In this document: positions 1,664 to 14,684 of the stretch, one piece after another
Layout of the letters: the number at the start of each line of letters is the position of its first letter
Numbering within the stretch: position 1 is the first letter of the stretch
Assembly (NCBI RefSeq): GCF_000172995.2
Contig: NC_014737.1
Coordinates: forward strand, 1 to 17,535
Reading direction: 5' to 3'
DNA from: Halogeometricum borinquense DSM 11551
Lineage (GTDB): Archaea; Halobacteriota; Halobacteria; Halobacteriales; Haloferacaceae
Length of the DNA stretch: 17,535 bases
Notes under the pieces: generated by a model
Told to the model about the DNA's origin: nothing
Seen by the model: only the letters and a program-made list of their open reading frames with translations
The model's database searches: none
Program-made: the position numbers and the translations under genes

Positions 1664-2463
1664 ACGCTGATGTGGTCGCCAACGTCGCCGTTCTCGTCTT
1701 CCTCTTCCTCACTCGTCTCCTCGCCGGCGCGGTCCACGAGCTTGCGTACGCCCGCGTTGAAGGCCGGGAGCAACTGCACCGCGACGAGGCTCTTCCGGAA
1801 CCACGCGCTCCCCTTCCCGTCGTTGAGACTGTACTCCATCGACGGGTCACTCAGGAGGTTGTCCCGAGAGACCCGGTCGCTCATCCGCAGGCCCGTGATG
1901 ACGTCGCGGTCGATCTGGCCGTACGACGCGCCGATCAGGCCGCGGACCCAGTCGAGGAGCTCCTCCTCGTCCTCGAAGCCCCCGAGGACGTCCTCGATGG
2001 TCTCCCGCTGGCGTTCGTGCAGCTCCTCCAGCGCAGGGCGCAACGCCACCGGGTCGGTCGCCCGCGTCACTGGCCGGTCCTCGGGGCGGACGTACTCGTT
2101 CGCGTTCTTCCGTAGCTTCCGGTAGGACTGCCTGAACGCCGGAAGGAGGAACGTCTCCTCGAACCCCAGACGGAACCTCTTCGCGGTCTGGAGGTCGGTC
2201 GGTTCGTCGAGGAGCGTGTTGTGCCGGTCGGGGCCGACGATGAGGCACGCCTTCGAGTTGCTCTCGACGAACGCATCGGTGAGGTCCTCGTCGGGGAAGC
2301 AACCGAGCGTCGCCACCGAGACCTCCTGAAGCCAGAACAGCAGATCCTCGGACGACTCGAAGCCGTCCCGGAGGCGGGTGACGAGGTCGTCGTGGTCGGC
2401 CTCCAGCTTGCTCAGCGCCGGGCGCGACGTCGAGGCGATCTCCCGGTCGGTGTCGGAACTCAT
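1660..2463 (-). CDS. Acidic hypothetical protein, paralog A (internally duplicated ~125-aa module)
   Basis: 267-aa ORF. Its start overlaps the upstream stop and its stop overlaps the NTPase start. It is a clear paralog of 2460-3248, sharing RPAL..LE..HDDLV..LR.GF, LGC, ELLDW, GQID, LLPAFNAGVRKLV and the C-terminus EEEED..GDHI[S/D]V. Internal repeat: RPAL at aa 14 and 142; LLPAF at aa 106 and 231. Confidence 0.8.
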   Translation of the reverse strand: MSSDTDREIASTSRPALSKLEADHDDLVTRLRDGFESSEDLLFWLQEVSVATLGCFPDEDLTDAFVESNSKACLIVGPDRHNTLLDEPTDLQTAKRFRLGFEETFLLPAFRQSYRKLRKNANEYVRPEDRPVTRATDPVALRPALEELHERQRETIEDVLGGFEDEEELLDWVRGLIGASYGQIDRDVITGLRMSDRVSRDNLLSDPSMEYSLNDGKGSAWFRKSLVAVQLLPAFNAGVRKLVDRAGEETSEEEEDENGDVGDHISV

Positions 2464-3248
2464 ACGTCGATGTGGTCTCCCGCGCTCTGGTCGTCCTCTT
2501 CCTCTTCGACGGTGTCCTCGCCAGCCTTCCCAACGAGCTTGCGTACGCCCGCGTTGAACGCCGGCAGCAGGAACTCGAAGGCGAACAACTGGCGGGTCTT
2601 CCGGGCCGCGCTGGGGTCCTCGAACTCGTCGAGGAGCACCTCCTGCGTGACGCGGCTCTCCTTGAAGGCGCGCACCTGGAACTCCGAGTCGATCTGGCCG
2701 AACGTCGCGCCGTTCAGGTCGCGGAGCCAGTCCAAGAGCTCAGGCTTCCCGCCTTCGATACCGTCGAGGAGTTGAGACAGCGTCTCCTTCTGCCGCTCCT
2801 CCAGGTGATCCAGCGCCGGGCGCATCGCTATGAACTGCTCGTCGGCGACGGTGACGGTGTCGTCCTTGTCGTCACCGAAATACTCGCCGGCGCTCCCCCT
2901 GAGCTTCCGGAACGCCGACCGCGTCGCCGGGAGAACGTAGGTCGCCTCCACCAGCAGACGGAACTCTTCGGCGGCCTCCAGGCTCACCGTGTCGTGCCCG
3001 TACCTCTCGCGCTCAGGCGACGTGATCAGCGTGGACCAGAGGACGCGCTCGTTCCCGAACTGCTGGTAGAGGCCGTCGTCGAGGCACCCGAGCGTCCGCA
3101 TGGAGAGCCGCTGGCACCAGAAGATGACCTCGTCCAGTGAGTCGAACCCCGCGCGGAGTTCAGCAACGAGATCGTCGTGCTCCTCCTCCAGCCGGCGCAG
3201 CGCAGGCCGACCGAAGTCCTTCCGACTGGGCGCGCTCTCGCTGCTCAT
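2460..3248 (-). CDS. Acidic hypothetical protein, paralog B (internally duplicated ~125-aa module)
   Basis: 262-aa ORF with ATGA overlaps at both ends. It has the same motif set as paralog A. RPAL is at aa 14 and 143; VLPATRSAFRKLR and LLPAFNAGVRKLV end the two halves. The C-terminus is EEEEDDQSAGDHIDV. Confidence 0.8.
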   Translation of the reverse strand: MSSESAPSRKDFGRPALRRLEEEHDDLVAELRAGFDSLDEVIFWCQRLSMRTLGCLDDGLYQQFGNERVLWSTLITSPERERYGHDTVSLEAAEEFRLLVEATYVLPATRSAFRKLRGSAGEYFGDDKDDTVTVADEQFIAMRPALDHLEERQKETLSQLLDGIEGGKPELLDWLRDLNGATFGQIDSEFQVRAFKESRVTQEVLLDEFEDPSAARKTRQLFAFEFLLPAFNAGVRKLVGKAGEDTVEEEEDDQSAGDHIDV

Positions 3249-4420
3249 CGGCCACCCTCCAGTTCGGTCAGCAGCGCGTCCAGCCGCTCCGAGTCGTACT
3301 TGTCCGGCGTGAAGTCCATCGCCTCCAGGAGGCCGTCGAAGCCCTCGGGGCGCTCCCAGCCAGCCGCTGCGAGGACGGCGTCCCAGAGCGTGACGAACTC
3401 CTTCAGTTGGTCGTCCTCGTCGATAGCGAACTCGTCACCGGCGTTCTCGTAGTAGGTCTGGATGATGACCGGGTTCGGCATCAGTTCCTGGACGTCGTGG
3501 AACTCCTCGAACCCGATGTCGGTCTTGTCGATGTCGTCCCGCAGCGCCCACACCAGCACCTTCGAGAGGTCCTCGTAGAGCTGGTCGAAGTTCATCGGGA
3601 TGGACTGCGGGATCGGCGTCGCCATCATCGACCCCTCGATGAGCGGGCTCACCCGACGCTGGTGCTCGGGGAGGTCCATGTCCTCGTCGAACTCGGGGAT
3701 ATCCTCTTCGGGCGCATCCTGCGCGCGCAGGTTCTCCGCGCGGTCGCGCATCATCGCCTCGAAGGCCGCCTCGCCCGGGTTCTCGCGGTCCGGGTCGAAG
3801 TACGGGCTGTCCATCATCATCTCGTCGGTGAGCCCGTAATCCTTCTCGCGGGCGAGGACGCTCTGCTCCTCCAGCGAGAGCTTCTCACCTTCCTCGTAGC
3901 GCTCCTCCAGTTCCTCCGACGTCGTCCGGCTCTCGACCTCGACGTCGAAGGTGACGTCCACCTCGACGTGGTCTCCGTGGCCGCGGGCGAACTCCTTCTC
4001 GGCGTCCTCGATGGCGCGCTCCAGGACGTTCCCGAAGCCACGCTCCAGGCCAACCGACTTCAGTCCGAGGTAGACGAACTTGAAGAGCCGGCGCAGCGCG
4101 ACGCTGGAGGTGCCGTTCACCCAGCCATCGCGCACCTTCTCGAAGACCGGGCGACGTTCGTCCTCGGGAAGCTTCGCCAGGTAGTCGAAGTCGAGGATTG
4201 CGTTGTAGACCCGTTCACGGATGCGTGAGCGCCGCTTCCGGGCGGTCTGTTCGGTGAGGTCCAGCGAGCCCTCGGGGTGGGTGAGGTACTCGCGGTCAGC
4301 GGTCGTGAGGATGCCGCGGGGCCGATCCAGTTCTTCCTCCAGGCGCGACTGTGCGTCTCGGTCGCCCGCGTCCTCCGGTGGTTCTGTCATACTCATTTTG
4401 GTGTGACGCCCTTCCGTCAC
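3245..4420 (-). CDS. Acidic hypothetical protein with an N-terminal putative DNA-binding motif; first gene of the operon
   Basis: 391-aa ORF with high GC3. The N-terminal ILTTADREYLTHPEG...ARKRRSRIRERVYNAILDFDYL resembles a motif I recall at the N-termini of haloarchaeal putative regulators (recollection only). GTG at 4420 gives the longest ORF; ATGs at 4396 and 4390 are alternative starts. A TATA-like TTATAAAA on the minus strand (4440-4447) sits 20-27 nt upstream of 4420. Confidence 0.8.
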   Translation of the reverse strand: MTEGRHTKMSMTEPPEDAGDRDAQSRLEEELDRPRGILTTADREYLTHPEGSLDLTEQTARKRRSRIRERVYNAILDFDYLAKLPEDERRPVFEKVRDGWVNGTSSVALRRLFKFVYLGLKSVGLERGFGNVLERAIEDAEKEFARGHGDHVEVDVTFDVEVESRTTSEELEERYEEGEKLSLEEQSVLAREKDYGLTDEMMMDSPYFDPDRENPGEAAFEAMMRDRAENLRAQDAPEEDIPEFDEDMDLPEHQRRVSPLIEGSMMATPIPQSIPMNFDQLYEDLSKVLVWALRDDIDKTDIGFEEFHDVQELMPNPVIIQTYYENAGDEFAIDEDDQLKEFVTLWDAVLAAAGWERPEGFDGLLEAMDFTPDKYDSERLDALLTELEGGR

Positions 4421-4810: not shown

Positions 4811-5074
4811 GTGAGCGTGCGCCGGCTCACCGTAGACGAAGCCGCGCAGCGCAACTGGGACGACCCGGAGGCTCTCGAAGAGCTCCACGTCCGCCGTGGG
4901 TGGGCTCCCGCCGACATCGCGCGGAAGTTCCAAACCGACGCGGCCACCGTCCGAGAAGAACTGAAGCGCCAGAACCTCTTCCAGAAGGACCAGTCGCTCC
5001 CCCCGAAGCAGGGGTTGGCCCGGAAACTCTGGGAGATGGGCACCGACCCGGATGCGGGTGGTGAGAAAGCGTGA
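4811..5074 (+). CDS. Small putative helix-turn-helix protein
   Basis: 87-aa ORF with a GTG start and high GC3. The segment WAPADIARKFQTDAATVREELKR looks like an HTH. Its stop overlaps the next gene's start (GTGA). Confidence 0.65.
   Translation: MSVRRLTVDEAAQRNWDDPEALEELHVRRGWAPADIARKFQTDAATVREELKRQNLFQKDQSLPPKQGLARKLWEMGTDPDAGGEKA
5047..5058 (+). repeat. Copy 1 of the 12-mer CCCGGATGCGGG
   Basis: Exact match inside the 3' end of CDS 4811-5074 (codons D-P-D-A-G). The extended 15-mer CCCGGATGCGGGTGG is the exact reverse complement of 12120-12134. Confidence 0.9.
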
Positions 5075-5313
5075 GCGCCGGAACCTCTCCGAGCGGGTCC
5101 GTCGCGGAGATCGTCGAGGACCTCGGCGGCACCGACACCGTCACCGTGGACCTCCCCGGCGTCGTCGTCGAGGCCGTGGACGCCGCCTGCTGCGCTGCTC
5201 TCGGCTGCCGCGTCAGCGAACCGCTCTCCCGAGTCACCATCGACGGGTTCGGCACTCGCGTCCTCTGTCCCGATCACGTGGAACACCTCATCGAACGCGA
5301 GGTCGAAGCATGA
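5071..5313 (+). CDS. Small acidic Cys-containing protein (possible metal-binding)
   Basis: 80-aa ORF with a GTG start, preceded by GGTGGTGA (5057-5064) at 6-nt spacing. Cysteine pattern: CC..LGC ... CPDH. Confidence 0.6.
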   Translation: MSAGTSPSGSVAEIVEDLGGTDTVTVDLPGVVVEAVDAACCAALGCRVSEPLSRVTIDGFGTRVLCPDHVEHLIEREVEA

Positions 5314-5336
5314 GGTTCAGGCGCGGACACCCTACG

Positions 5337-5343
5337 TTTATAA
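5337..5343 (+). promoter_or_regulatory. TATA-like box TTTATAA
   Basis: The only AT-rich heptamer in the 5314-5629 gap. It would place a TSS near 5368-5372, about 260 nt upstream of the 5630 start. Confidence 0.35.
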
Positions 5344-5405
5344 CGACTGCGCGGAAAGACACGCGAAAAGCAAGGCTAACCAATCAGCGCCTGACAGAAG
5401 CCGGT

Positions 5406-5527
5406 TCGGGGTGGTCGGTTCCACCCCGAAGGTTGGACACCTACGGCTTCTGTCGGCACCGACGTAAACTTACCGCCTCGCCCTTAGAGGCGGGTCTGCG
5501 TCTCGGTGCTGGCGTCGTTGTACGACG
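5406..5527 (+). other. Hairpin-rich non-coding leader or candidate sRNA upstream of 5630
   Basis: Perfect stems, read directly: TCGGGGTGG/CCACCCCGA (5406-5414/5421-5429); GTCGG-CA-CCGAC (5452-5463); CCGCCTC/GAGGCGG (5473-5479/5487-5493); CGTCGT-TGT-ACGACG (5513-5527). It shares CCTACGGC and GGCTTCTGT-plus-palindrome with the 4421-4810 leader. Confidence 0.35.
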
Positions 5528-5629
5528 TCGGGTGCTCGCCGAAACGACACCCATCATGAACGACACCAGCGACGACCACCACGACGAACAGGCCAACGAC
5601 CGAGCACCAGCCGCACGGGTGAGCTACTG

Positions 5630-6943
5630 ATGGCAGGCGACGAGGTGCCGGACGTCGAAGCAGGGACCGAGGAACTCCTCGACGAGGCCGAAGAGATCGA
5701 CAGCGACGACGGGATGACCGCTCGGATGCGCCGGGAGAACCAACTCCTCGGGCGTGCCGTGGACTACGTGGCCGCCTGGAGCGAGGACGGCGCGATCTCC
5801 AGCGCGAACGCGAACGCGCTCGCCGATGCGCTCGCCAGCGAACTCGCGCACTACACGAAGACCGACATCAAGGACGAGTTCACCGACGTCTTCGTGGACG
5901 ACGGGAGCGGGGCGAACGGCATCCCGTTCGACGAACTCATCGAGCAGCGCCTCCAGGAGGTGAAGGTCGTCTCCACGACCGACGCGAAGCAGGGCCTCGT
6001 CTGGCGCTGGCACTTCAGCGACGGCGTGCAGCTGGAGACCGAGAAGTCGAAGGACGAAGGGCGGAAGCACTACGACTGGACCGCCTGGAAGGAGGACTAC
6101 TTCGAGGCGCTCATCAGCCTCGGGAAGGGCGAGCGCATCGCCCCGCCCTCCCGTGAGCGCCGGGACAGCAACGACTGGAAGGAGTTCCTCAGCGAGATCC
6201 TCCTCGACCGGGCCGAGACTGTTGAGCACGTCGGCCCGCGCACCGAAGCGGTCGAACATCTCCGCGACTACGTGAACCGCCAGACGGCGTACGCCGACGT
6301 GAAGGATATGCGCGACCGGCAGGGGATCTGGATGGACGCACCACCAGCCGACGACGACGGCGAAGCCGCCACCGACGGCGGTGGACCGTCCCAGATCCGC
6401 GTCCCCACCCAGGCCGTGAAGCGCATCTGCGACCAGGCGGGCATCGAGACCCGTGCGCTCCAGATCGAACTGGACGCCCGCAGCGAGACTCTACCCGACG
6501 TCGCCGGCGTCTCCGACTACGAGTACGTGGACGGCCAGCGCGTCTCCTTCTGGTGCCTCGACGCCGGCTTCGCCGAACCCGCCGAGTTCGTCGAGGAGCC
6601 CGAGAGCCCCGCCGAACAGGCGGCGCGGGAGCAGGAGGAAGAGGCCGAAGAGGCCCAGACCGACGTCGGCGCGGTGGATGACAAGGACGACTCGGACGGC
6701 ACCGAGAGCGAACAGGAGACCGACGACGTCACCGAGGACGGCGACGAGGGCGACGAGGACGCCCACGACGGCCCCGCCACGTCCGACGAGACCGAGAGCG
6801 CAGAGGACGACGTGGACGGCCACACGGAGGACGAGAGGCCGCCTGAGGACGCACCGGACGACGGACCAGCGAACGACTTCGAGTCGGGGATCACCGGCGG
6901 CTTCGGGATCGACCCGGACGACGACGACGAGGGAGGTGAGTGA
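5630..6943 (+). CDS. Hypothetical protein with an extremely acidic, low-complexity C-terminal tail; first large gene of the replication operon
   Basis: 437-aa ORF. The ATG overlaps the stop of a 24-codon upstream mini-ORF (TGATG). GGGTGA lies 7 nt upstream. About the last 120 aa are almost entirely D/E/T/G/P/A. No recognisable catalytic motif. Confidence 0.85.
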   Translation: MAGDEVPDVEAGTEELLDEAEEIDSDDGMTARMRRENQLLGRAVDYVAAWSEDGAISSANANALADALASELAHYTKTDIKDEFTDVFVDDGSGANGIPFDELIEQRLQEVKVVSTTDAKQGLVWRWHFSDGVQLETEKSKDEGRKHYDWTAWKEDYFEALISLGKGERIAPPSRERRDSNDWKEFLSEILLDRAETVEHVGPRTEAVEHLRDYVNRQTAYADVKDMRDRQGIWMDAPPADDDGEAATDGGGPSQIRVPTQAVKRICDQAGIETRALQIELDARSETLPDVAGVSDYEYVDGQRVSFWCLDAGFAEPAEFVEEPESPAEQAAREQEEEAEEAQTDVGAVDDKDDSDGTESEQETDDVTEDGDEGDEDAHDGPATSDETESAEDDVDGHTEDERPPEDAPDDGPANDFESGITGGFGIDPDDDDEGGE

Positions 6944-6945
6944 GC

Positions 6946-8832
6946 ATGCCGATGGACCTTGAGGACATCGAAATCACGGGAATCGAGGATGTTCCAGTCA
7001 CCGAATCGCTCGCCTACCACGGCCCGCCGGGTACCGGGAAGACGTCGAAGTCGGCGGCCCGGGTAGCGAAGCTCATCCAGGACCACGACTACGGCATCGA
7101 GGACGTCGCCTGGGTGACCTACAGACGCTCGCTCGCCCGCGACACGCTCGCACGGCTGGCGTCCTGGGACATCATCGACCCGTCCGAGCTGGAGAACCCG
7201 AGCGACGGGGCCACCCGCTACATCGGCACCGCACACGCGGTCGCCAACCGCTGCGCTTCCATCGGCGAGGGTGTCGTCGAACCGTGGCACCGCTCCGACT
7301 TCTGCGAGAAGCGAGGGATGCAGTTCTGGACGTCGGAACCCTGGGAGGACAGCGCCGGGAAGCTCCTCTTCCGGGTTCTCGACTACCTCGCCAACGCGAA
7401 CACCACGCCCGAGGACAAGGCCGCGCTGCGCGAGTGCCCGCACACCGACGATCTCCGCGACCACTGGCAGGGCGACATCGTCGAGGCGTGGTACGAGTGG
7501 GAGGACTACAAGGGCCAGATGAACATCATCGACTTCCACGAGATGCTGAAGCGCCCGCTCCAGGAGGGCGAGTCTCCCGGACGGCCCATCCTCGTCATCG
7601 ACGAGTACCACGACGTCACCGCTCTGATGGACGCTCTCTTCCGGTCCTGGATGGAGGACGCAGAGATCGTCATCGTCGCCGGCGACCCGCACCAGGTGGT
7701 GAACGCCTACGACGGGGCCAGCCCGGCTTTCTTCGAGGACCTCGACCTCCCGACCGTCCTCCTGGACACTACCTACCGCGTCCCCGAAGAGCACTGGGCG
7801 CTCGCCACGCGCATGCTCGCCGACGCCCACACTCCGCCTGCGGTCACCCGCGACGGACGAGGGCGTGTGAACGACATCAACAGCCCGCGCTTCGAACACT
7901 CCGAAGAGAACGGCTGGGTGAACCTGCCGGGCCGCGACACGCCGGGGTCGCCGGGCTGGATCTGCGAGAAGTTCGGGCGTGAGGAGACGCTGTTCCTCAC
8001 CCGGACGCGGATGCAGGCCGACGGCGTCGGGGCAGCCCTCGAAGCCGCCGGCATCCCGTATCGCTCGCAGCCGGAGCTCCACGGCTGGAACACCGAGGAG
8101 ACCGACATCCGTCTCGCCGTCCACAACGCGCTTCAGAAGATCGAAGGGTACAGCCCGGCGAACTTCCGCTACGGCGGAAACAAGGCCTTCGGCGAGTACA
8201 CGGGGAACAACAAGAACCCCGCCGACATCTCGCTGAAGAACAGCGAGGCCGCGGCCCTCCTGGAGGCGACGTCGGCGCACGACCTCGACATCACCCGGTC
8301 CGATGCGAACGACCTCGTCGAGGAACTGCGCGACGACGAGGACGGCCACCTTACCCTCCGGGAGTTCGACGACTACGTCACGAAGTCGTTCTGGGAGCGC
8401 TACACCGCCGGCGCAGGATCGGTGAACCGGCTGAACAAGGGACCGTTCGGGTCCGGGTCGTCCGGCGAGCGCGAACTCCGGGCACTCCGGGCCGCGCTGA
8501 ACCGGCAGGACGGCCCGATCAGCCCCGACTCGATCAGCTGCCACGCCATCACCATCCACGCCTCGAAGGGGATGGAGGCCGACGACGTCGTCGTCTACGA
8601 CGGCATCAGCAACCGCATCCTCCGAGAGATCCAGGTGAACGACGAGTCCCGGCGGAACGAGTACCGCACGTGGTACGTCGCGCTCTCGCGGGCGAAGAAG
8701 CGCCTGCACGTGATGCGCGACGGGTTCGCCTGGACGAACAGCATCATCCCCGAGAACCTCCAGGCCGCGGCCCGCGAGGCCTACCAGGAAGGCCACGTGG
8801 ACGGCGATCTCCCCGGAGGTGAGACGGCGTGA
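6946..8832 (+). CDS. Superfamily 1 (UvrD/Rep/PcrA-like) DNA helicase
   Basis: Motifs read in order: I GPPGTGKT (nt 7021-7044); II LVIDEYHD; III VAGDPHQ; IV TTYRVP; V ITIHASKGMEADDVVV; VI WYVALSRAKKRL. The longest ORF starts at GTG 6940. GGAGGTGA (6932-6939) followed by 6 nt favours ATG 6946. Confidence 0.9.
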   Translation: MPMDLEDIEITGIEDVPVTESLAYHGPPGTGKTSKSAARVAKLIQDHDYGIEDVAWVTYRRSLARDTLARLASWDIIDPSELENPSDGATRYIGTAHAVANRCASIGEGVVEPWHRSDFCEKRGMQFWTSEPWEDSAGKLLFRVLDYLANANTTPEDKAALRECPHTDDLRDHWQGDIVEAWYEWEDYKGQMNIIDFHEMLKRPLQEGESPGRPILVIDEYHDVTALMDALFRSWMEDAEIVIVAGDPHQVVNAYDGASPAFFEDLDLPTVLLDTTYRVPEEHWALATRMLADAHTPPAVTRDGRGRVNDINSPRFEHSEENGWVNLPGRDTPGSPGWICEKFGREETLFLTRTRMQADGVGAALEAAGIPYRSQPELHGWNTEETDIRLAVHNALQKIEGYSPANFRYGGNKAFGEYTGNNKNPADISLKNSEAAALLEATSAHDLDITRSDANDLVEELRDDEDGHLTLREFDDYVTKSFWERYTAGAGSVNRLNKGPFGSGSSGERELRALRAALNRQDGPISPDSISCHAITIHASKGMEADDVVVYDGISNRILREIQVNDESRRNEYRTWYVALSRAKKRLHVMRDGFAWTNSIIPENLQAAAREAYQEGHVDGDLPGGETA

Positions 8833-10118
8833 GCACCGGCGCGTTCACGGTGCCGATGGAGACGTCGAGGCGCTACATCCCCGAGGAGATGAAGGAGTTC
8901 GACCACTGGGTCCTCTGGTCACCCGAGTTCGGGAAGCAGATCATGGCCCCGTGGGTGACCGGGCACTGCTACCCGGCCAGCTGGGGCGAGCAGGAGACCG
9001 AGCGTCCCGAGACGACCTTCGAGAAGGCGAAGATGCTCGCCGACCTCCCGACCGAGGAGGTCCACCGGACGTACCCGTTCCCGCCGAAGGACGGCGAGGA
9101 GGAGCCACACGTCCCGGAGCGCATCATCCCGACGTTCCTGCTGCTTCACGACCCACCGGAGCCACCGCTGATGCAGGTGGACTTCGACGACGTCCGGGAC
9201 CCCGCATCCGGGTGTGTCTCCGAGGAGGTCGAGGAGATCGTCGAACGCCTCGATGCGTTCACCGAGGTCTCGCAGTCTGGCGAGGGGCTCCACGTCTTCG
9301 TGAGGGCAGAACTCCCCGGCGGTCTCGGGAAGTTCATCGCCGAACTGGACGACGTCGGCGAGATAGAGATGTACGACCACGGGCGCGTCGTCGGCGCGAC
9401 CTGGAGGCACGTCGAGGGGACGCCGACCGACGTCCCCGAGCGGCAGGACGTCGTCGAGGACCTCATTAAGACCTACGAGAGCGAGGAGTACCGCCAGCGC
9501 CGGCTCCGCTCCTCGTCCGAGGATGCGTCGGAGACCGACTGGAACAGCGACGTCTCCGGGATCGAGGCCGCCATCCGGAACCGAGAGAACGACAGCTCCA
9601 GCAGCGGGCGGTCACCGTACTTCGACATCGACATCCGGTCCATCGCCGACACCGGCGACTTCTCGCGCTATCGACGAGAGACGCCGGGCGACGAGTGGCA
9701 GGGACCGCACCCGGCTCACGGGCCGATGCACAGCGACCCCGAGGAGTGTACGAACTTCGGGGTGGAACCGAGCGGGAACACCTGGTTCTGCTTCGCGCAC
9801 AACGCGGGAGGTCGCGCGATAGAGCTGGCCGCGGTCCTCGCCGACGAGGTGGACGTCAGCTGCGCCGACATCCCGAAGCGCGGTGCCGGCCAGGGCTGGC
9901 TGGGAGATCGTCCGGTGAAGATGCTGAAGACCTGCCTCTGGCTCCGTGATCACGCCGGCGTCCCCGACGACACGAAGCCACCCCACGCCGCGCTGCTGGG
10001 CGTGGCCGACGTCGAGGACCTCTACGTCCGTGACCGCGACCGCGGCATCCTCGGTGAGAAGAACGCCGAGCTGTGCCGGCGAGTCTTCGACGAGATGACG
10101 CTGGACTACTTCGAGTAG
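8829..10118 (+). CDS. Archaeo-eukaryotic primase superfamily primase-polymerase (PrimPol) with a C-terminal zinc-finger-like motif
   Basis: AEP motifs: QVDFDD (nt 9180-9191), SGEGLHVFV, IEMYDHGR. The C-terminal HPAHGPMH...CTNFGV...WFCFAHNAGGRAIELAA resembles a primase CHC2-type zinc finger. The GTG start overlaps the helicase stop (GTGA), and GGAGGTGA (8815-8822) lies 6 nt upstream. Confidence 0.9.
   Translation: MSTGAFTVPMETSRRYIPEEMKEFDHWVLWSPEFGKQIMAPWVTGHCYPASWGEQETERPETTFEKAKMLADLPTEEVHRTYPFPPKDGEEEPHVPERIIPTFLLLHDPPEPPLMQVDFDDVRDPASGCVSEEVEEIVERLDAFTEVSQSGEGLHVFVRAELPGGLGKFIAELDDVGEIEMYDHGRVVGATWRHVEGTPTDVPERQDVVEDLIKTYESEEYRQRRLRSSSEDASETDWNSDVSGIEAAIRNRENDSSSSGRSPYFDIDIRSIADTGDFSRYRRETPGDEWQGPHPAHGPMHSDPEECTNFGVEPSGNTWFCFAHNAGGRAIELAAVLADEVDVSCADIPKRGAGQGWLGDRPVKMLKTCLWLRDHAGVPDDTKPPHAALLGVADVEDLYVRDRDRGILGEKNAELCRRVFDEMTLDYFE
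9201..9212 (-). repeat. Copy 2 of the 12-mer (reverse complement CCCGCATCCGGG)
   Basis: Exact match inside the PrimPol CDS, just after the DFDD motif. Confidence 0.9.
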
Positions 10119-10227
10119 GCCAGCCCCTCCGCCCCCCGATCTTCTTCTGACCGACGTCGCCGATCTCCTCCAGGAGCAACTGCGCCTTCTCATCGACCCC
10201 CGTCTGTCCGACCTCTCTACTGTATAA

Positions 10228-10375
10228 GGGTGATTCGACCCCCCTTGCCATCTCAGTTTACCCGAAGTAAACCGCGCTTGCAGTCCTATTACTTAACTAC
10301 TGGGGTCAGTCGGGGGGTTCTGCGAGGAGAGTTTTCGACAGGTAATCTGAGATGGCAACCCGGGTCGAGTGACCC
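10228..10375. mobile_element. MITE-like element or long hairpin: 29-bp imperfect terminal inverted repeats around a 90-bp core
   Basis: Left arm GGGTGATTCGACCCCCCTTGCCATCTCAG (10228-10256). Right arm CTGAGATGGCAACCCGGGTCGAGTGACCC (10347-10375). They are 24/29 complementary, and the inner 12 bp are perfect. TAA lies on both flanks (10225-10227, 10376-10378). There is no ORF inside. Confidence 0.45.
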
Positions 10376-10419
10376 TAATATAGTCATGCCACTTCTGAAC
10401 CACCTCGATCTCGACCTAC

Positions 10420-10431
10420 CCCGGATGCGGG
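10420..10431 (+). repeat. Copy 3 of the 12-mer CCCGGATGCGGG
   Basis: Exact match, intergenic, about 180 nt upstream of recombinase gene 1. It shares CCCGGATGCGGGGG..TCG with copy 5. Confidence 0.9.
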
Positions 10432-10454
10432 GGGTCGAGGATGCCGGGTTTCGA
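10423..10454 (+). repeat. Two tandem imperfect 16-bp repeats (GGATGCGGGGGGTCGA / GGATGCCGGGTTTCGA)
   Basis: Read directly. The first unit overlaps copy 3 of the 12-mer and sits inside a nested hairpin CTCGACC...GGTCGAG (10410-10416/10433-10439). Confidence 0.5.
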
Positions 10455-10596
10455 GGGGTGTGGAGCCTGAGCCGCCTGAATCGGTGATTTACCGACTCAT
10501 GCCGATAGCTGGATTAGTGACATGAGACGTTTCGACGGAACGGCTGAGCCGTCCGAAATTAGCCTCTTCAGAGGTTCCCGGGTAACTTTCCCAGCG

Positions 10597-10602
10597 TTTA
10601 TA
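10597..10602 (+). promoter_or_regulatory. TATA box TTTATA for recombinase gene 1
   Basis: It lies 25-30 nt upstream of the in-frame ATG at 10627, which is leaderless geometry. It is only 13-18 nt upstream of ATG 10615. Confidence 0.45.
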
Positions 10603-10614
10603 CTGACATGACTC

Positions 10615-11295
10615 ATGTCAATATCTATGGGAACTGGCCATTTCAACAAGGACCGCATCACCCACCTCGAACGGTACCGGCCACTGGAACCCGACCAGAT
10701 CCCCACCTGGAAGGAAGCCGCCAAGGATGGGAAGCCCATCGAGGAACTGCTCGGACTCACCCTCCTCCACACAGGGATTCGCCGGACGACGATGGCGCAC
10801 ATGACAGAAGCCTGGCTGAACCTCGACGACGAAGAGAACCCGCACGTGAAGATCCCGCCTCGTCAAGAGTGTACGCTCGGTCGCGGGAAGCAGGGAAGCG
10901 GTGGCGACACGAAGAACACCGGACAGCCCTGCTACAACTGCCGCGAGAAACGCCCCGGCTACTGGAAGCCGAAGTCCCACCACGGCGTCCGCCCCATCCC
11001 GATCCGTGAGGAAGACGTCGAAGAGATCCTCCGGAACTACTTCTCGGTCCACGACACCGTAGGAGGCCGGGAGAAGGTGAACTACTACGTTGAGAAAATC
11101 TCCGACCGCGCCGATCTCGGACGCGAGGTCACACCCCACGACCTCCGGAACACGTACGGAACGAGACTGGCGCGGAAAGGCTTCACACCCCACGAAATCA
11201 TGCATCTGATGGGTCACTCCTCCATCGGCATCGCTCGATTCTACATCAAGATGAGCGGTACCCGCCTCGGGCTGGCCTACGACGAAAAATGGTAG
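10615..11295 (+). CDS. Tyrosine recombinase/integrase (short form with a Cys-containing insertion)
   Basis: Catalytic signature: HTGIRRTT (Arg I), WKPKSHHGVRPIP (Lys hairpin), HDLRNTYG (H-x-x-R), GHSSIGIARFY (His/Tyr). Cys insertion: C..x..CYNC. The TATA spacing suggests the true start may be ATG 10627. Confidence 0.9.
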   Translation: MSISMGTGHFNKDRITHLERYRPLEPDQIPTWKEAAKDGKPIEELLGLTLLHTGIRRTTMAHMTEAWLNLDDEENPHVKIPPRQECTLGRGKQGSGGDTKNTGQPCYNCREKRPGYWKPKSHHGVRPIPIREEDVEEILRNYFSVHDTVGGREKVNYYVEKISDRADLGREVTPHDLRNTYGTRLARKGFTPHEIMHLMGHSSIGIARFYIKMSGTRLGLAYDEKW

Positions 11296-12107
11296 AGGAG
11301 AAGACGCTCACCGACTACAACGGACGACCGCTCGCCGACGCCAGCCAGCCCCTCGACCAGGAGCAGCTGGCCGCGTGGCGGGAGGCCGCCCTGGAAGCCG
11401 ACGGCGTGAAGCGCCTCGCCGGACTGCTGTCGCCGTACACGGGCTTGCGGAACTCCACGGTCGCGCACCTGCGCCCCAGCTGGGTCGTCTACAAGACGAA
11501 GATTCCCGAAATCGTGGTTCCCAGCGAAGCCCCGTGCAACCTCGGGAACGGTGACGACGCCTGCTACCGGTGTCAAGTGAACCGAGACGGCACCTGGAAG
11601 CCGGAGAGTCCCCACGGCGCACGTCGCGTTCCGGTTCCCGACGAGGACGTCGTCGAGGCGCTCAGGGACTACTTCGCGCTCTACGACAAGCTCCGCACCG
11701 AGCAACGGCTCCGCACCTACCTGAAGGACCTCGTCAAGGACGCCAGCCTCCAGCGCGACGTGAACGCGCACGCTCTTCGACACACCTACGGAACGATTCT
11801 CGCCCGGAAGGGCTTCGAGATCGAGACGATGCGCCAGGCGATGGGGTACTCGATGGACGAAGACAACGGGCGCTTCGCGGTTCGTCGATACATCCAGTTC
11901 GTCGATGAACGCGAAGAGGAGAGGTACGCCTGTGGGGCTGACCGAGCGCAGGGTGGCACCTGTGAGATGCCGGTAGACACGCCCGACGCGCGCTGTTACG
12001 TCCACGACGACCGCGTCATCACCTGTTCGGCGACGAACCGGTACGGCGAACCCTGCCACCGGATCGTCGATCAACTCACCCAGCGCTGCGCGTTCCATCA
12101 AGACTGA
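11289..12107 (+). CDS. Tyrosine recombinase/integrase paralog with a C-terminal tandem CCCH extension
   Basis: It overlaps the upstream gene by 7 nt. Motifs: YTGLRNST, WKPESPHGARRVPVP, HALRHTYG, GYS...RRYIQF. Same Cys insertion (C..x..CYRC). It adds two C-x9-C-x10-C-x2-H units at nt 11931-12098. Confidence 0.9.
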   Translation: MVEEKTLTDYNGRPLADASQPLDQEQLAAWREAALEADGVKRLAGLLSPYTGLRNSTVAHLRPSWVVYKTKIPEIVVPSEAPCNLGNGDDACYRCQVNRDGTWKPESPHGARRVPVPDEDVVEALRDYFALYDKLRTEQRLRTYLKDLVKDASLQRDVNAHALRHTYGTILARKGFEIETMRQAMGYSMDEDNGRFAVRRYIQFVDEREEERYACGADRAQGGTCEMPVDTPDARCYVHDDRVITCSATNRYGEPCHRIVDQLTQRCAFHQD

Positions 12108-12122
12108 CCTTCTGAGCCTCCA

Positions 12123-12134
12123 CCCGCATCCGGG
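12123..12134 (-). repeat. Copy 4 of the 12-mer (reverse complement)
   Basis: Exact match, intergenic. It lies 16 nt after the recombinase-2 stop and 25 nt left of unit A. Confidence 0.9.
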
Positions 12135-12159
12135 CGAGGACTGAACTGGGTTCGAGAAC

Positions 12160-12212
12160 CGACCGTCCTAAACAACATCGGGGCGGTGAATAGGAAAGTG
12201 TTGTTTAGGGCG
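12160..12212. repeat. Palindromic unit A (14-bp stem, 21-nt loop); direct copy of unit B
   Basis: CGACCGTCCTAAACAACAT (12160-12178) and AAAGTGTTGTTTAGG (12195-12209) are identical to unit B. The arms CGTCCTAAACAACA / TGTTGTTTAGGGCG pair with one G-T wobble. It lies between the convergent stops at 12107 and 12228. Confidence 0.75.
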
Positions 12213-12227
12213 TGAAGAGAAATCGGC

Positions 12228-12824
12228 TCACTTCCCGAGGTACTTCGTTCGAACCTTGTCGCCCTCGCGCCACTTCGCATAGCGGTAGGGACCGTGAGGA
12301 CAGCCATCGCAACCGGGTCCACACGGCACTTTCATCTTGTAGACGTTCACCGAGACGCCGTCTGGAACCTCGTCCAGGTCGTCGCCATCAACATCTTCCT
12401 CGACGTCGTCCACCTCGCCCTCCGCTGGCGGTTCCTCCAGCTGCTCTCTCGCTTCGGCTTCGAGGAACGCAGCACGCTCTTCGGCCCAGTCGGCGAGGTC
12501 GCGGAGCCGATCTGCGCCCTGCCGTTCAACGGCCTCGACCACGTACTTCGGAAGAGACGCCGGCGGACGCGGCTCGGTGCTGGGCGCATCCTCCACGCCA
12601 CCGGGGTCGTCGCGCGGCACGATTTCCTCGACGTTGGTGAACTGAAGACGTCGAACGACGAGGTCCTCTTCCTCAACGTCCAACGGTCCGAAACCCAGGA
12701 ACCGGTGGTCGTCTTCGAGTTCTACGACGCGCCAGCGTTCTCCTTCGACTTGGAACCCATCGTAGAGGACGATGTCGCCGGGCTGGAGCCGGTCGCGGAT
12801 GATGTTTCGTTCTCGGATGCTCAC
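12228..12824 (-). CDS. Acidic hypothetical protein with a C-terminal Cys-rich PHGPY zinc-ribbon-like motif
   Basis: 198-aa ORF. GTG at 12824 is the only possible start, because an in-frame stop lies 3 codons upstream. GGTGAT lies 5 nt upstream. The C-terminus is VPCGPGCDGCPHGPYRYAKWREGDKVRTKYLGK. GC3 is high. Confidence 0.8.
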   Translation of the reverse strand: MSIRERNIIRDRLQPGDIVLYDGFQVEGERWRVVELEDDHRFLGFGPLDVEEEDLVVRRLQFTNVEEIVPRDDPGGVEDAPSTEPRPPASLPKYVVEAVERQGADRLRDLADWAEERAAFLEAEAREQLEEPPAEGEVDDVEEDVDGDDLDEVPDGVSVNVYKMKVPCGPGCDGCPHGPYRYAKWREGDKVRTKYLGK

Positions 12825-12893
12825 GGTGCATCACCGGTAGTGATTCGTTCGGGGTGCAGTGGGTGGTCGTGCATGGTGATCTGGACGGAGTGG

Positions 12894-12947
12894 CGACCGT
12901 CCTAAACAACATTCCAACCTCTATTGCCAAAAGTGTTGTTTAGGACG
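12894..12947. repeat. Palindromic unit B (perfect 14-bp stem, 22-nt loop); direct copy of unit A
   Basis: CGACCGTCCTAAACAACAT (12894-12912) and AAAGTGTTGTTTAGG (12930-12944). The arms CGTCCTAAACAACA (12898-12911) / TGTTGTTTAGGACG (12934-12947) are perfectly complementary. The loop sequence differs from unit A. Confidence 0.75.
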
Positions 12948-12958
12948 CAGAGAAGCCA

Positions 12959-12970
12959 CCCGGATGCGGG
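12959..12970 (+). repeat. Copy 5 of the 12-mer CCCGGATGCGGG
   Basis: Exact match, intergenic, 11 nt right of unit B. Confidence 0.9.
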
Positions 12971-13031: not shown

Positions 13032-13430
13032 ATGACCGTGGAAGAGACGCTGAAACAGCGATTCACGGGACTCCCTTCCGACCAGAACGCGGTGGACGCG
13101 TCGTGCTGCAAGCGCTGTCGAGAATACGGCTCCCTCGAAGAGATGGAGTTCGACGAGAACGAGCGCGTCTACGCGACCGTCGCCTGGAAGAAGAACCTGC
13201 GCGGTGAGGCCAGCTGGGAACTCATCGGCCTCTTCCACCAGGACCACGGCGACGTCGCCGATCTCCCCGAGGACCCGCGCCGGCCCTGCGCAGTTCTGGA
13301 GGTGACACTCGAACCGAGCAACGCGCTCCCCCGCTTCGGCCAGATCGACGGCGCGGCGTTCACGCTCGGGCAGGTGGACGTCCTCGACACCGCCGGCGTC
13401 GTCGCCCGGAAAACGGTTGCTGCTGACTAA
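13032..13430 (+). CDS. Acidic hypothetical protein
   Basis: 132-aa ORF from ATG 13032. The track's 12924 start adds a basic, non-coding-like extension that would cover unit B. GC3 is high and the protein is acidic. It overlaps the convergent gene's stop by 4 nt. Confidence 0.65.
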   Translation: MTVEETLKQRFTGLPSDQNAVDASCCKRCREYGSLEEMEFDENERVYATVAWKKNLRGEASWELIGLFHQDHGDVADLPEDPRRPCAVLEVTLEPSNALPRFGQIDGAAFTLGQVDVLDTAGVVARKTVAAD

Positions 13431-13846
13431 CCCTGTTCTTCGAACCACTGCGGAGCGCCCGTGTACTCGCTCCAGCAGCGCTTGTGACACGGCTCCCCTC
13501 GGGCGTTCGGTATCGCTCGGTCGAAATCGACCTGCTTTCCACAGAGGTCACACTCAGCGCTGTGCCCGTGCATCCGAGCGTCGTTCGAGAGCCCCTTTGT
13601 CTCGATGTACAGCTCGTGCAGCGCCCGCGGAGTGAGCCGGACCAGCACCTTCTCGCGGTCGTCCGGGTTCCGCTTCTCTGGCGTGTACGTGAGCACCCAG
13701 TCCTGGCCGGGTTCTCCGTCACCGGCTGGCCCGAGGGAGATCGTCTGCGCGAGTTCGTCCGGAACGTAGTGCCACTCGTTGTCTCTGAACCTCGGGTAGT
13801 GTCCCTCCGGGCGTGGGTTCTCCGGATCAACGTCGTCTTCGGTCAT
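13427..13846 (-). CDS. Hypothetical protein with a C-terminal zinc-finger-like motif
   Basis: 139-aa ORF. Its ATG overlaps the upstream stop (ATGA). Motif: HGHSAECDLCGK...CHKRCW. Confidence 0.7.
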   Translation of the reverse strand: MTEDDVDPENPRPEGHYPRFRDNEWHYVPDELAQTISLGPAGDGEPGQDWVLTYTPEKRNPDDREKVLVRLTPRALHELYIETKGLSNDARMHGHSAECDLCGKQVDFDRAIPNARGEPCHKRCWSEYTGAPQWFEEQG

Positions 13847-14058
13847 GCGCTCTCACCGTCCTCGGGCCAGTGCCAGACGACGTCGCCGTCGTCGAGGGAG
13901 AGGACGCCGTCGCGTTCCGCGCGCTCGTAGGCGGCCATGAGCGGGGTAAACCCTACGCGCTTGCCCGTTCGCGCGGTGAATACGCGGGAGTAGGCGCGCA
14001 GGAGCCGCCACCGACGCCACCGCGTCCGGAGCTGGTGTAGGTACCTGTACATCGTCAC
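13843..14058 (-). CDS. Small protein with an Arg-rich basic N-terminus (possible recombination directionality factor or DNA binder)
   Basis: 71-aa ORF, translationally coupled on both sides (4-nt overlaps with the recombinase and with the downstream gene). The N-terminus YRYLHQLRTRWRRWRLLRAY is atypically basic for this acidic proteome. Confidence 0.55.
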   Translation of the reverse strand: MTMYRYLHQLRTRWRRWRLLRAYSRVFTARTGKRVGFTPLMAAYERAERDGVLSLDDGDVVWHWPEDGESA

Positions 14059-14684
14059 ACCAGGTGGGAGTAGATTCGGTCCGTCGTCTCCCTGGACGAA
14101 TGGCGCAGGTGGCGCTGCACGTCTTCCAGACGACCGCCCTGTTCGACGATGATGCGGTAGGCCACCGAGTGTCGGAAGGTGTGCGGGGTGACGTCCTCGG
14201 GGCTGGGTTCACTGTCCTCGGTGGCGACGCTCTTCACCTGTGGCGTCACGTCGGCGGCCTGTGCGGCTCGCTTCACGACGCGCTGAACGCTGCGGGGTGT
14301 CGCCCGGTCTGACTCTCGGGACGGGAACAGCGCCCCGTTCTCGGGCTCCTTCCACCGCCCTGTGAGATACTGCTTCAGAGTGTCGCGGGCACTGTAGACG
14401 TCGCCGAAGTCGTCGAGGTAGACGGTCGCGTCGCCCGGACGGCCCTTCTGCTTGTGACTCGGTAGGTAGATGTGAGGCCGTTCGGCGTCCAGGTGGAGGT
14501 CGCCGACGTCGAGATCGACCAGTTCGCTCACCCGGAGACCGGTGTCGGCGAGCACGGTGATCATGGCGTAGTTGCGCTGCTGGAGGTACGTCGGGAACGT
14601 CTCGCTGAGGCAGACGCTTCGAACTCGTTTCACTTGGTCGGGCTTCATCCAGGACTTCGCCTGGGTGGTCTCGGTGGTGCTCAT
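14055..14684 (-). CDS. Tyrosine recombinase/integrase (catalytic-domain-sized, 209 aa)
   Basis: Motifs: ADTGLRVSEL (Arg I), HTFRHSVA (H-x-x-R), LRHSSRETTDRIYSHL (His/Tyr). Confidence 0.9.
   Translation of the reverse strand: MSTTETTQAKSWMKPDQVKRVRSVCLSETFPTYLQQRNYAMITVLADTGLRVSELVDLDVGDLHLDAERPHIYLPSHKQKGRPGDATVYLDDFGDVYSARDTLKQYLTGRWKEPENGALFPSRESDRATPRSVQRVVKRAAQAADVTPQVKSVATEDSEPSPEDVTPHTFRHSVAYRIIVEQGGRLEDVQRHLRHSSRETTDRIYSHLV

Follow-up and report, generated by a model that had tools for sequence, protein, structure and literature searches.

The 17,535-bp stretch of Halogeometricum borinquense DNA analysed here (the window, meaning the whole of that stretch), probably the plasmid pHBOR05, carries five exact copies of the 12-mer CCCGGATGCGGG, termed S1 to S5 below. 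The feature is real, non-random and sharply defined. Its best explanation, which we hold tentatively and draw from sequence comparison, is that the copies are recombination sites bounding the modules of the plasmid, the candidate enzymes being Int1 and Int2, two small tyrosine recombinases whose tandem genes lie between S3 and S4. An earlier sequence-only reading of the same DNA, the first-pass annotation, had offered three kinds of role. Of these, a core or accessory site of a recombinase is favoured by the position of the sites at module borders, their bracketing of the Int pair, their co-occurrence with that pair in a related contig (L002) and their conserved centre; a regulator or centromere-like binding site and a restriction or defence target are favoured less.

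Five copies of a near-palindromic site

The exact copies lie at 5047-5058 (S1, plus strand), 9201-9212 (S2, minus), 10420-10431 (S3, plus), 12123-12134 (S4, minus) and 12959-12970 (S5, plus), just where the first-pass annotation had placed them. Its judgement that five copies lie far above chance is borne out by dinucleotide-preserving shuffles, which hold 0.01 copies on average and of which none in 200 reaches five. A degenerate sixth copy with one mismatch, CCCGGAGGCGGG, is found at 2367-2378 on the plus strand, inside a 267-amino-acid gene. Variants of CCCGGATGCGGG are designated CCCGSMKSCGGG.

No copy was present in 62 kb of Haloarcula and Natrinema plasmids, in 259 kb surrounding Rep homologues from 16 genomes or in 610 kb surrounding DUF8161 homologues from 80 metagenome loci, making a total of about 950 kb of related haloarchaeal mobile-element DNA, 195 kb of it exceeding 60% GC. 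Since codon-driven 12-mers taken from the window occur 6-21 times each in the same DNA, CCCGGATGCGGG is not a general haloarchaeal or codon-driven word. Composition alone would give about 1.9 copies per 3.9-Mb genome at 60% GC. The generic pattern CCCG-N4-CGGG is found eight times in the window, compared to 0.78 times per 17.5 kb elsewhere, and outside the window it encloses a GATG loop only in L002. As a control, the same kind of count was made in 44 other loci of at least 8 kb, six of which contain private four-copy 11-mers; such words are thus not rare, and those inspected looked codon-driven. None of them unites five dispersed copies with absence from background DNA and a noncoding context, the other five-copy control words being an iteron array with clustered copies, a word in coding-like contexts and, from a bacterial locus, a low-complexity word of the (GGC)n type. 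One private 11-mer, CACGATCGCGG, was seen in L017, a Natrinema plasmid contig with a 76%-identical Rep and no detected integrase; it occurs there at 1139, 2532, 4191 and 5342, with two further one-mismatch copies and none in the 950 kb of background. It was considered as a parallel case and dropped, given the codon-driven appearance of such words in the six control loci.

The 12-mer is the centre of a longer dyad symmetry spanning about 22 bp. Both flanks run on as CGGG(G)n-T[GC]G, and the symmetry reaches about 5-7 nt past the 12-mer on either side of an asymmetric centre, G-GATG-C, so that the idealised site may be written CACCACCCG-GATG-CGGGTGGTG. Reading outward from the centre, CGGG(G)0-3 is followed by T in 11 of 12 half-sites (p=2e-5) and T[GC]G is found in eight of the 12 (p=1e-6), while 57 of 72 arm positions, by a hand tally from the half-sites, are G or T (p=7e-7). 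All 12 bp are identical in the five copies and the flanks differ: an invariant centre lies between degenerate arms. S1, for example, has the arms CGACCCG on the left and CGGGTGG on the right, and arms of 11-13 nt are confined to S3, where TCGACCTACCCCG GATG CGGGGGGTCGA forms a longer imperfect palindrome at 10402-10457. Conservation of centre over arm fits a crossover region and is the opposite of what a typical operator displays. The more local flank similarities proposed at first hold for copies 1 and 4, which share CCCGGATGCGGGTGG, and for copies 2 and 5, which share CACCCGGATGCGGGG; for copies 3 and 5 the common part is CCCGGATGCGGGGG, the TCG after it sitting at an offset that differs by one base.

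The description of the motif as a mini-hairpin was assessed with DNA energy parameters against flank-shuffle and natural-flank controls. Only S3 gains significant pairing from its flanks beyond the 4-bp stem (p=0.01), as does its orthologue in L002; S1, S2, S4 and S5 do not. An extended hairpin or attC-like structure was accordingly rejected, the controls being non-significant at every site other than S3.

That these sites divide a circle is apparent from four independent assemblies, which match the window at 99.97-100% identity, are collinear with it and all have different start points. They comprise a closed contig of the NCBI assembly GCA_000337855.1 (AOHT01000054.1, 17,624 bp with an 89-bp terminal overlap) and contigs of 17,565 bp in each of the Logan assemblies SRR017590, SRR017591 and ERR481281, the complete SRR017591 contig having a 30-bp terminal overlap. 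The window is therefore a complete circular replicon. The accession prefix AOHT belongs to H. borinquense (PMC3783009). Five plasmids are known in this species (PMC3035229), of which pHBOR05 is the smallest and is without an orc/cdc6 gene (PMC3528665).

It was noticed from the outset that three copies frame the recombinase region, which is correct but forms part of a larger picture in which all five sites partition the plasmid. The 5,373-bp segment from S1 to S3 holds the whole replicon, with S2 inside it and inverted, and the replicon block that these two sites enclose recurs in other plasmids. The 1.7-kb segment from S3 to S4 holds int1 and int2 (10627-12107) with a TATA box of their own; the 0.85-kb segment from S4 to S5 holds a DUF6788 gene; and the remaining 9.6 kb of the plasmid lie between S5 and S1. 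The bracketing of the Int pair by copies 3 and 4 and of the DUF6788 cassette by copies 4 and 5 is thus as originally described. Orientation alternates (+ - + - +), S1, S3 and S5 being mutually direct, and because the number of sites on the circle is odd a single direct junction, from S5 to S1, is expected.

Copies 3, 4 and 5 are intergenic, as first stated and now confirmed from the gene map. S3 sits 195 nt upstream of int1; S4 lies 16 nt past the int2 stop codon and forms the left end of the cassette, and S5 forms its right end, 62 nt upstream of a 132-amino-acid gene. S1 falls within the last nine codons of an 87-amino-acid gene, 13 nt ahead of the start of an 80-amino-acid gene, and S2 is in frame inside the Rep gene, covering codons 125-128 (P-A-S-G). 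Just to the right of S3, positions 10440-10468 are 83% complementary over 29 nt to 11178-11206 in the 3' part of int1.

The cassette itself (12135-12958, minus strand) has subterminal palindromes at 12165-12211 and 12899-12946. The pattern GTCCTAAACAACA-N21-23-TGTTGTTTAGG[AG]C is found at both of its ends and nowhere else, the ends being composite inverted repeats of 12-mer plus palindrome. A transposon-like cassette with target duplication was considered on the strength of these ends and rejected, since no consistent duplication was found. Inverted pairs ATTAACCAACA / TGTTGGTTAA, resembling the cassette palindromes, recur in Halorubrum and Natrinema loci (L021 and L022), and palindromes of this type may be operators of a conserved regulator.

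Relatives with and without the recombinase pair

The first-pass annotation had proposed that the motif be sought in homologous elements. The relative with the Int pair retains it, the centres being flipped; relatives without the pair do not. The former, L002, is a 2.4-kb contig with 90.6% identity to positions 10375-12140 of the window and is the only close relative bearing the same Int pair, the proteins being 92-94% identical. The site is present there at both orthologous positions with its stems intact. At S3 the centre reads CCTC, which is the flipped form with one change and the same variant as in the sixth copy in the window, and at S4 the exact 12-mer is found in the orientation opposite to that of the window. 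Homology between the two elements stops at 12140, 6 nt past S4, to be followed in L002 by an unrelated 138-amino-acid gene, and returns only in the DUF8161 gene; the 132-amino-acid and DUF6788 genes are missing from that position. A shift is also evident at S3, identity being 44/45 (98%) to its left and 156/196 (about 80%) in the noncoding DNA to its right (Fisher p=0.0017).

The replicon block recurs without the Int pair, at 87% nucleotide identity in L013, 79% in L014 and 76% in the Natrinema contig L017. In these three contigs, and in a fourth, L097, both the pair and the exact 12-mer are absent. In the 5.9 kb of L013, whose Rep is 96% identical, a mutated S2 is the only copy. The S2 equivalents read CCCTCATCCGGG in L013 and TCTGCATCTGGA in L014, and more distant Reps encode PETG at this position, from which it appears that, without the Int pair, the drift of S2 matches the background rate. 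The same background drift is seen in the S1 equivalents of relatives without the pair; L097, for example, reads CCTGAATGCGGG at that position.

These relatives also provide boundaries. L097 shares the 80-amino-acid gene, its homology to the window starting at 5044, 3 nt before S1, with unrelated genes upstream. Within Rep the window and L013 become about three times as divergent, and the maximum-likelihood change point, 9197, is 4 nt from S2 (permutation p=0.0135). Together with the two shifts in L002, the relatives thus show a change in homology or divergence at, or close to, each of S1-S4, four sites out of five. For S5, a possible junction was sought in L011, a contig that ends exactly at 12970, and was rejected: other contigs of the same low-coverage sample are 100% identical fragments that span S1, and the end is therefore probably a break in coverage.

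More distant tandem Int pairs recur at 29-44% identity in L003, L034 and L036. In L034 and L036 (43% and 29% identity) the pair is again convergent with an operon of a third recombinase gene, int3, and a DUF8161 gene, and the toxin-antitoxin cassettes that lie between the two differ. The region from int2 to DUF8161 thus carries different cargo in the window, L002, L034 and L036. In L036 the stop codon of DUF8161 is directly followed by CCCGTATGCGGGTGG, for which L034 has no counterpart. Downstream of the pair in L003, positions 3150-4000 belong to a 1.1-kb noncoding region with direct repeats of about 230 bp and several GGGGG-N-CCCCC palindromes, possible iterons or recombination sites belonging to this lineage.

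Candidate mechanism and rival explanations

We tentatively propose that the 12-mer is a common-core crossover site for Int1 and Int2, allowing rare module exchange. Each site would comprise about 22 bp, with two inverted G/T-rich arms, CGGG(G)n-T[GC]G, around the asymmetric G-GATG-C, and would be bound and cut by the two recombinases. S3, with its full arms and its position just upstream of int1, would be the primary site, with which S1, S2, S4 and S5 share only the core and short arms. The identity of the centre and the variability of the arms would follow because recombining partners must match across the crossover region. Recombination between inverted sites would invert a module, and that between direct sites would excise or re-insert one or two modules, S3 with S5 yielding a 2,539-bp circle and S1 with S3 a 5,373-bp replicon circle. 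Rare events of this kind over evolutionary time would leave a mosaic of related plasmids. Two properties of tyrosine-recombinase sites are indeed found here, namely an identical crossover region in the partners and an element-encoded recombinase with intact catalytic motifs.

Several observations weigh against this interpretation. By the standards of tyrosine recombinases the conserved arms are very short, and the length of the G-run differs by 0-3 bp between half-sites, which is awkward for rigid recognition of double-stranded DNA. None of the four assemblies contains a recombination product, and the Logan contigs close the circle without a break at the sites. Frequent inversion of the shufflon type is thus excluded, and since all four assemblies are collinear and closed any recombination would have to be rare or regulated. 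An inversion using S1 and S2 would break the Rep gene and the 87-amino-acid gene, making free use of these sites impossible; lying in genes, they would be usable only in gene-preserving events, or are relics of past joins. Some of the boundaries are also less telling than others: the homology of L013, L014 and L017 ends at 10384, the end of an inverted repeat, 36 nt to the left of S3 and outside the site; the support interval of the S2 change point is wide (9158-9431); and the boundary at S1 falls together with a gene boundary. The distant Int pairs of L003, L034 and L036 have no detectable shared flanking core. Furthermore, the plasmid encodes other proteins that are as private as the motif and are possible binders of it, namely p87 (helix-turn-helix-like), p132, RHH91 and AbrB-like proteins. 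Finally, the flip in L002 calls for an extra assumption, since no ordinary conservative recombination would convert (+)int(-) to (-)int(+) and leave both flanks in place.

Such an assumption is offered by the core itself. Being near-palindromic (G-AT-G compared with C-AT-C), it would let sites synapse in either alignment, each product overlap then being a heteroduplex with two mismatches that replication would segregate. Heterology of the overlap is tolerated by integrases of the Tn916/CTnDOT type. Inserted modules would end up flanked by inverted cores as either (+,-) or (-,+), the two states seen in the window and L002, respectively. Extended to its limit, this suggests a plasmid-autonomous archaeal counterpart of the dif module, in which minimal Int1 and Int2 act as a heteromer, non-directionally, on a near-palindromic core and replication resolves the overlap mismatch. 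The idea is doubtful, although its non-directional element would account for the alternation of orientation in the window as well as for the joint flip of the two sites in L002. Alternatively, the flip may have come about through loop inversion by template switching, plausible for the S3 hairpin, or through independent substitutions.

The first rival is that the sites are operators or other binding sites for a plasmid-specific dimeric DNA-binding protein (the 87-amino-acid, RHH, AbrB or zinc-finger protein), acting in regulation, silencing or partition. The dyad symmetry of about 22 bp would suit such a protein, as would the collinearity of all the assemblies and the presence of proteins, among them p87 (whose gene contains S1), p132 and RHH91, that are without relatives in any fetched locus. 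S5 is suitably placed, about 35 nt upstream of a TATA-like box of the 132-amino-acid gene, but it alone is near such a promoter-like sequence: two sites fall within genes, one of them deep inside and the other at the end, and S4 is downstream of convergent genes. The central 4-6 bp are the most conserved and the arms the least, the reverse of most operators. Moreover, L002 retains the sites though it is without the 132-amino-acid and DUF6788 genes there, centromere sites, in the partition variant, are normally clustered, and the mosaic boundaries at four sites are left unexplained. We therefore regard binding sites of this sort as unlikely.

Very unlikely, in our assessment, is the proposal that the sites are substrates of a host recombinase, mimicking a chromosomal dif or att site, with the plasmid Ints irrelevant. 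Alternating orientation and position at module borders are as in pdif plasmids (PMC13141974), and relatives that live in other hosts, Natrinema for example, lack the motif, in keeping with host specificity. However, the archaeal dif site consists of two 11-nt inverted repeats and a 6-nt spacer (PMC8371274), compared to the approximately 7 nt per arm recognisable here, and S3 and S4 lie tightly around the plasmid's own Int pair, which L002 retains together with the sites.

Equally poor, or slightly poorer, are the prospects of a host-wide repeated word of a REP-like or uptake-signal-like kind, or of a product of composition or codon use. It has in its favour the private four-copy 11-mers of the six control loci and the coding location of S1 and S2, where the protein contexts DPDAG and DPASG are partly common to relatives. 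It is opposed by the complete absence of the 12-mer from the background DNA, with the 1.9 copies per genome expected from composition, and by the three intergenic copies, the extra dyad symmetry of the arms and the module-border positions. REP/BIME elements number tens to hundreds of copies in a host chromosome and are wholly extragenic; two of the present copies are intragenic.

Least probable of all are single-strand hairpin signals on alternating strands that prime or load Rep and the SF1 helicase, in the manner of ssiA/ssiB of RSF1010: the plasmid does encode a primase-polymerase-like Rep and a helicase, the 4-bp G:C stems do alternate in strand and S3 is a strong hairpin just past the putative origin, but the extended stems are non-significant at S1, S2, S4 and S5, L013 has only a mutated S2 despite its 96%-identical Rep, L014 and L017 have no site, and the conserved noncoding part of the replicon block contains no copy.

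Other candidates were rejected outright. A start codon or leaderless promoter does not suit S1, whose ATG open reading frame (5052-5630) is Arg-rich and in the wrong frame by GC content at third codon positions, nor the other copies, which yield open reading frames of just 17-23 codons and lack a TATA box at -27. A search for tRNAs gave none, Rfam gave nothing above threshold and T-run terminators are absent at the sites. A Rep-binding iteron is contradicted by the missing sites in L013, and a binding site for the DUF8161 zinc-finger protein or Int3 by the more than 80 loci (610 kb) that carry this module and lack the motif.

The plasmid, its recombinases and related systems

The int1 gene (10627-11295, plus strand) encodes 222 amino acids and is followed by its 272-amino-acid paralogue int2 (11289-12107, plus strand). 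Both proteins match Pfam PF00589 and keep the catalytic set of Box I Arg, β-hairpin Lys, HxxR and terminal Tyr: R52, K114/116, H171-x-x-R174, H197 and Y206 in Int1; and R54, K104, H161-x-x-R164 and Y201 in Int2, where Y187 replaces the second His. Neither has a classical N-terminal core-binding domain. In both, a Cys-rich insertion, C-x(10-18)-CxxC, separates the Box I Arg from the β-hairpin Lys. The C-terminal tail of Int2 is Cys/His zinc-finger-like and matches zf-primase and HGGxSTG below threshold. The best matches of the pair among solved structures are Tn1549 Int and archaeal XerA, confined to the catalytic segment; that of Int1 to Tn1549 Int (6EMY/6EMZ, E=3e-7) covers only the HxxR-GH-Y segment of about 45 residues. 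Scores against integron-integrase NCBIfam models are 19-24 bits, compared with cut-offs of 265-435, and only two homologues of Int2 were found among 5.8 billion proteins. The pair is best explained as a new paired type of small tyrosine recombinase.

The remainder of the plasmid may be followed around the circle. Positions 485-4420 form a minus-strand operon whose products include a Zot-like ATPase and a DUF8102 protein; upstream of the ATPase, a P-loop protein, and in the same operon sit the 267- and 262-amino-acid genes (1660-2463 and 2460-3248), adjacent paralogues with stretches of 54-79 nt that are 77-87% identical. The 87-amino-acid helix-turn-helix-like gene (4811-5074, plus strand) and an 80-amino-acid Cys-rich gene (5071-5313) precede the conserved replicon block (5627-10384, plus strand), which lies between S1 and S3 and consists of a gene for a 437-amino-acid protein, the UvrD-like SF1 helicase gene (6946-8832), the Rep gene (8829-10118) and an inverted repeat. 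Rep, a primase-polymerase-like protein of 429 amino acids, matches no Pfam or NCBIfam model and has more than 116 homologues, whose consensus includes the archaeo-eukaryotic primase-like motifs VDFDD and SGEGLHVF (DxD, SGxGxH) and a C-terminal HPxHG...C...C. The 437-amino-acid protein and the SF1 helicase are its invariable partners, and the three appear to represent an uncurated haloarchaeal plasmid replicon family. The block is closed by the large, imperfect inverted repeat at 10219-10384 (65-nt arms, 74% complementary, with a 36-nt centre), a candidate replication origin or structured RNA. Between the 80- and 437-amino-acid genes, noncoding positions 5333-5532 are 76-77% conserved at the nucleotide level in the unrelated elements L034, L038 and L048 and contain the hairpin GGGGTGG-TCGGTTC-CACCCC. 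Within them, a 26-nt segment (5415-5440) shows 88% complementarity to part of the Rep gene (9746-9771) and may represent a trans-antisense copy-control RNA.

Beyond the Int pair come the DUF6788 gene (12228-12824, minus strand) within its cassette, the 132-amino-acid gene (13032-13430) and the third recombinase operon (13427-14684, minus strand), made up of int3 (14055-14684), a 69-amino-acid gene and the gene for the DUF8161 zinc-finger protein (13427-13846). This operon is convergent with int1-int2, the variable cassette region lying between them. The pair formed by the 69-amino-acid and DUF8161 genes (13427-14058) recurs in hundreds of haloarchaeal contigs with 70-88% conservation. It comes after a tyrosine integrase in the window and in pNG400 but after a serine recombinase (Resolvase domain) in L119 (3446-4738), and may be a recombinase accessory or directionality module. 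Toxin-antitoxin-like genes form part of the remaining plasmid.

The closest described system is that of the Acinetobacter pdif sites and dif modules, which depends on XerC and XerD. In pdif plasmids inversely oriented sites bound every module, the backbone included; pairs of modules between direct sites can be excised, and single modules are thought to move through cointegrates. Related Acinetobacter plasmids differ by whole, self-contained modules, which include toxin-antitoxin or hypothetical genes, with crossovers centred on pdif sites (PMC13141974). Here too a small plasmid has several copies of one short site, with neighbours inverted and the replication backbone bounded as well. The differences are considerable. 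A pdif site spans 28 bp, has different arms for XerC and XerD on either side of a 6-bp spacer and resembles the chromosomal dif, as against a 12-bp near-palindrome with both arms G/T-rich; the recombinases are those of the host chromosome in the one case and, as candidates, plasmid-encoded between two sites in the other; and two of the present sites are inside genes, in an archaeal host. Rearrangement at pdif sites has been demonstrated by polymerase chain reaction, whereas the present evidence consists of comparative breakpoints. By this comparison the plasmid is not a member of the pdif family and is analogous only.

Other tyrosine-recombinase systems offer partial parallels. In core sites of this kind inverted arms enclose an overlap of 6-8 bp; the 15-bp lambda core contains an overlap of 7 bp, and in dif a 6-nt spacer separates arms of 11 nt (PMC8371274). 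As in lambda att and similar cores, an identical core is flanked by inverted degenerate arms, the fuller site (S3) is next to the int genes and direct copies, S3 and S5, flank a unit holding those genes. Unlike lambda, the plasmid has five sites on one small replicon, a core that is nearly palindromic and two paralogous recombinases, and neither arm-type sites nor a directionality factor have been identified. Shufflons (Rci/sfx) and the Int1 inversion system of phiCh1, the latter a haloalkaliphilic archaeal precedent (Rossler et al. 2004, as cited in PMC8371274), similarly have a recombinase gene between inverted repeats and multiple sites in alternating orientation. Their sites, however, cluster in the 3' ends of genes and vary a surface or tail protein, with inversion frequent enough to produce heterogeneous assemblies; the present sites are 0.8-9.6 kb apart with no variable coding ends and four collinear assemblies, and the plasmid is thus no shufflon. 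Integrases of the Tn916, Tn1549 and CTnDOT type include the best structural match of Int1, that of Tn1549, and heteroduplex overlaps resolved by replication would explain the flip in L002, but a conjugative transposon architecture is lacking and tolerance of heterology is, in this case, our inference. Integron attC sites, which are single-strand hairpins of 57-141 bp in one orientation acted on by IntI, do not correspond, the present cores being inverted and four of the five stems non-significant.

Module exchange among archaeal plasmids and viruses has usually been ascribed to homologous recombination between integrated copies (PMC8371274). If the reading of the 12-mer as a crossover site is true, a short site and the plasmid's own recombinase pair would supply a concrete mechanism for haloarchaeal mosaicism, and would have a natural counterpart in the dif modules of Acinetobacter, a system by which resistance genes spread and which is still poorly understood. 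Should the non-directional, heterology-tolerant version also be true, the plasmid would provide a natural example of behaviour so far only engineered, in symmetric lox, vox and rox sites. A core of 12-22 bp with two small recombinases working at high salt could, moreover, serve as a genetic tool for haloarchaea.

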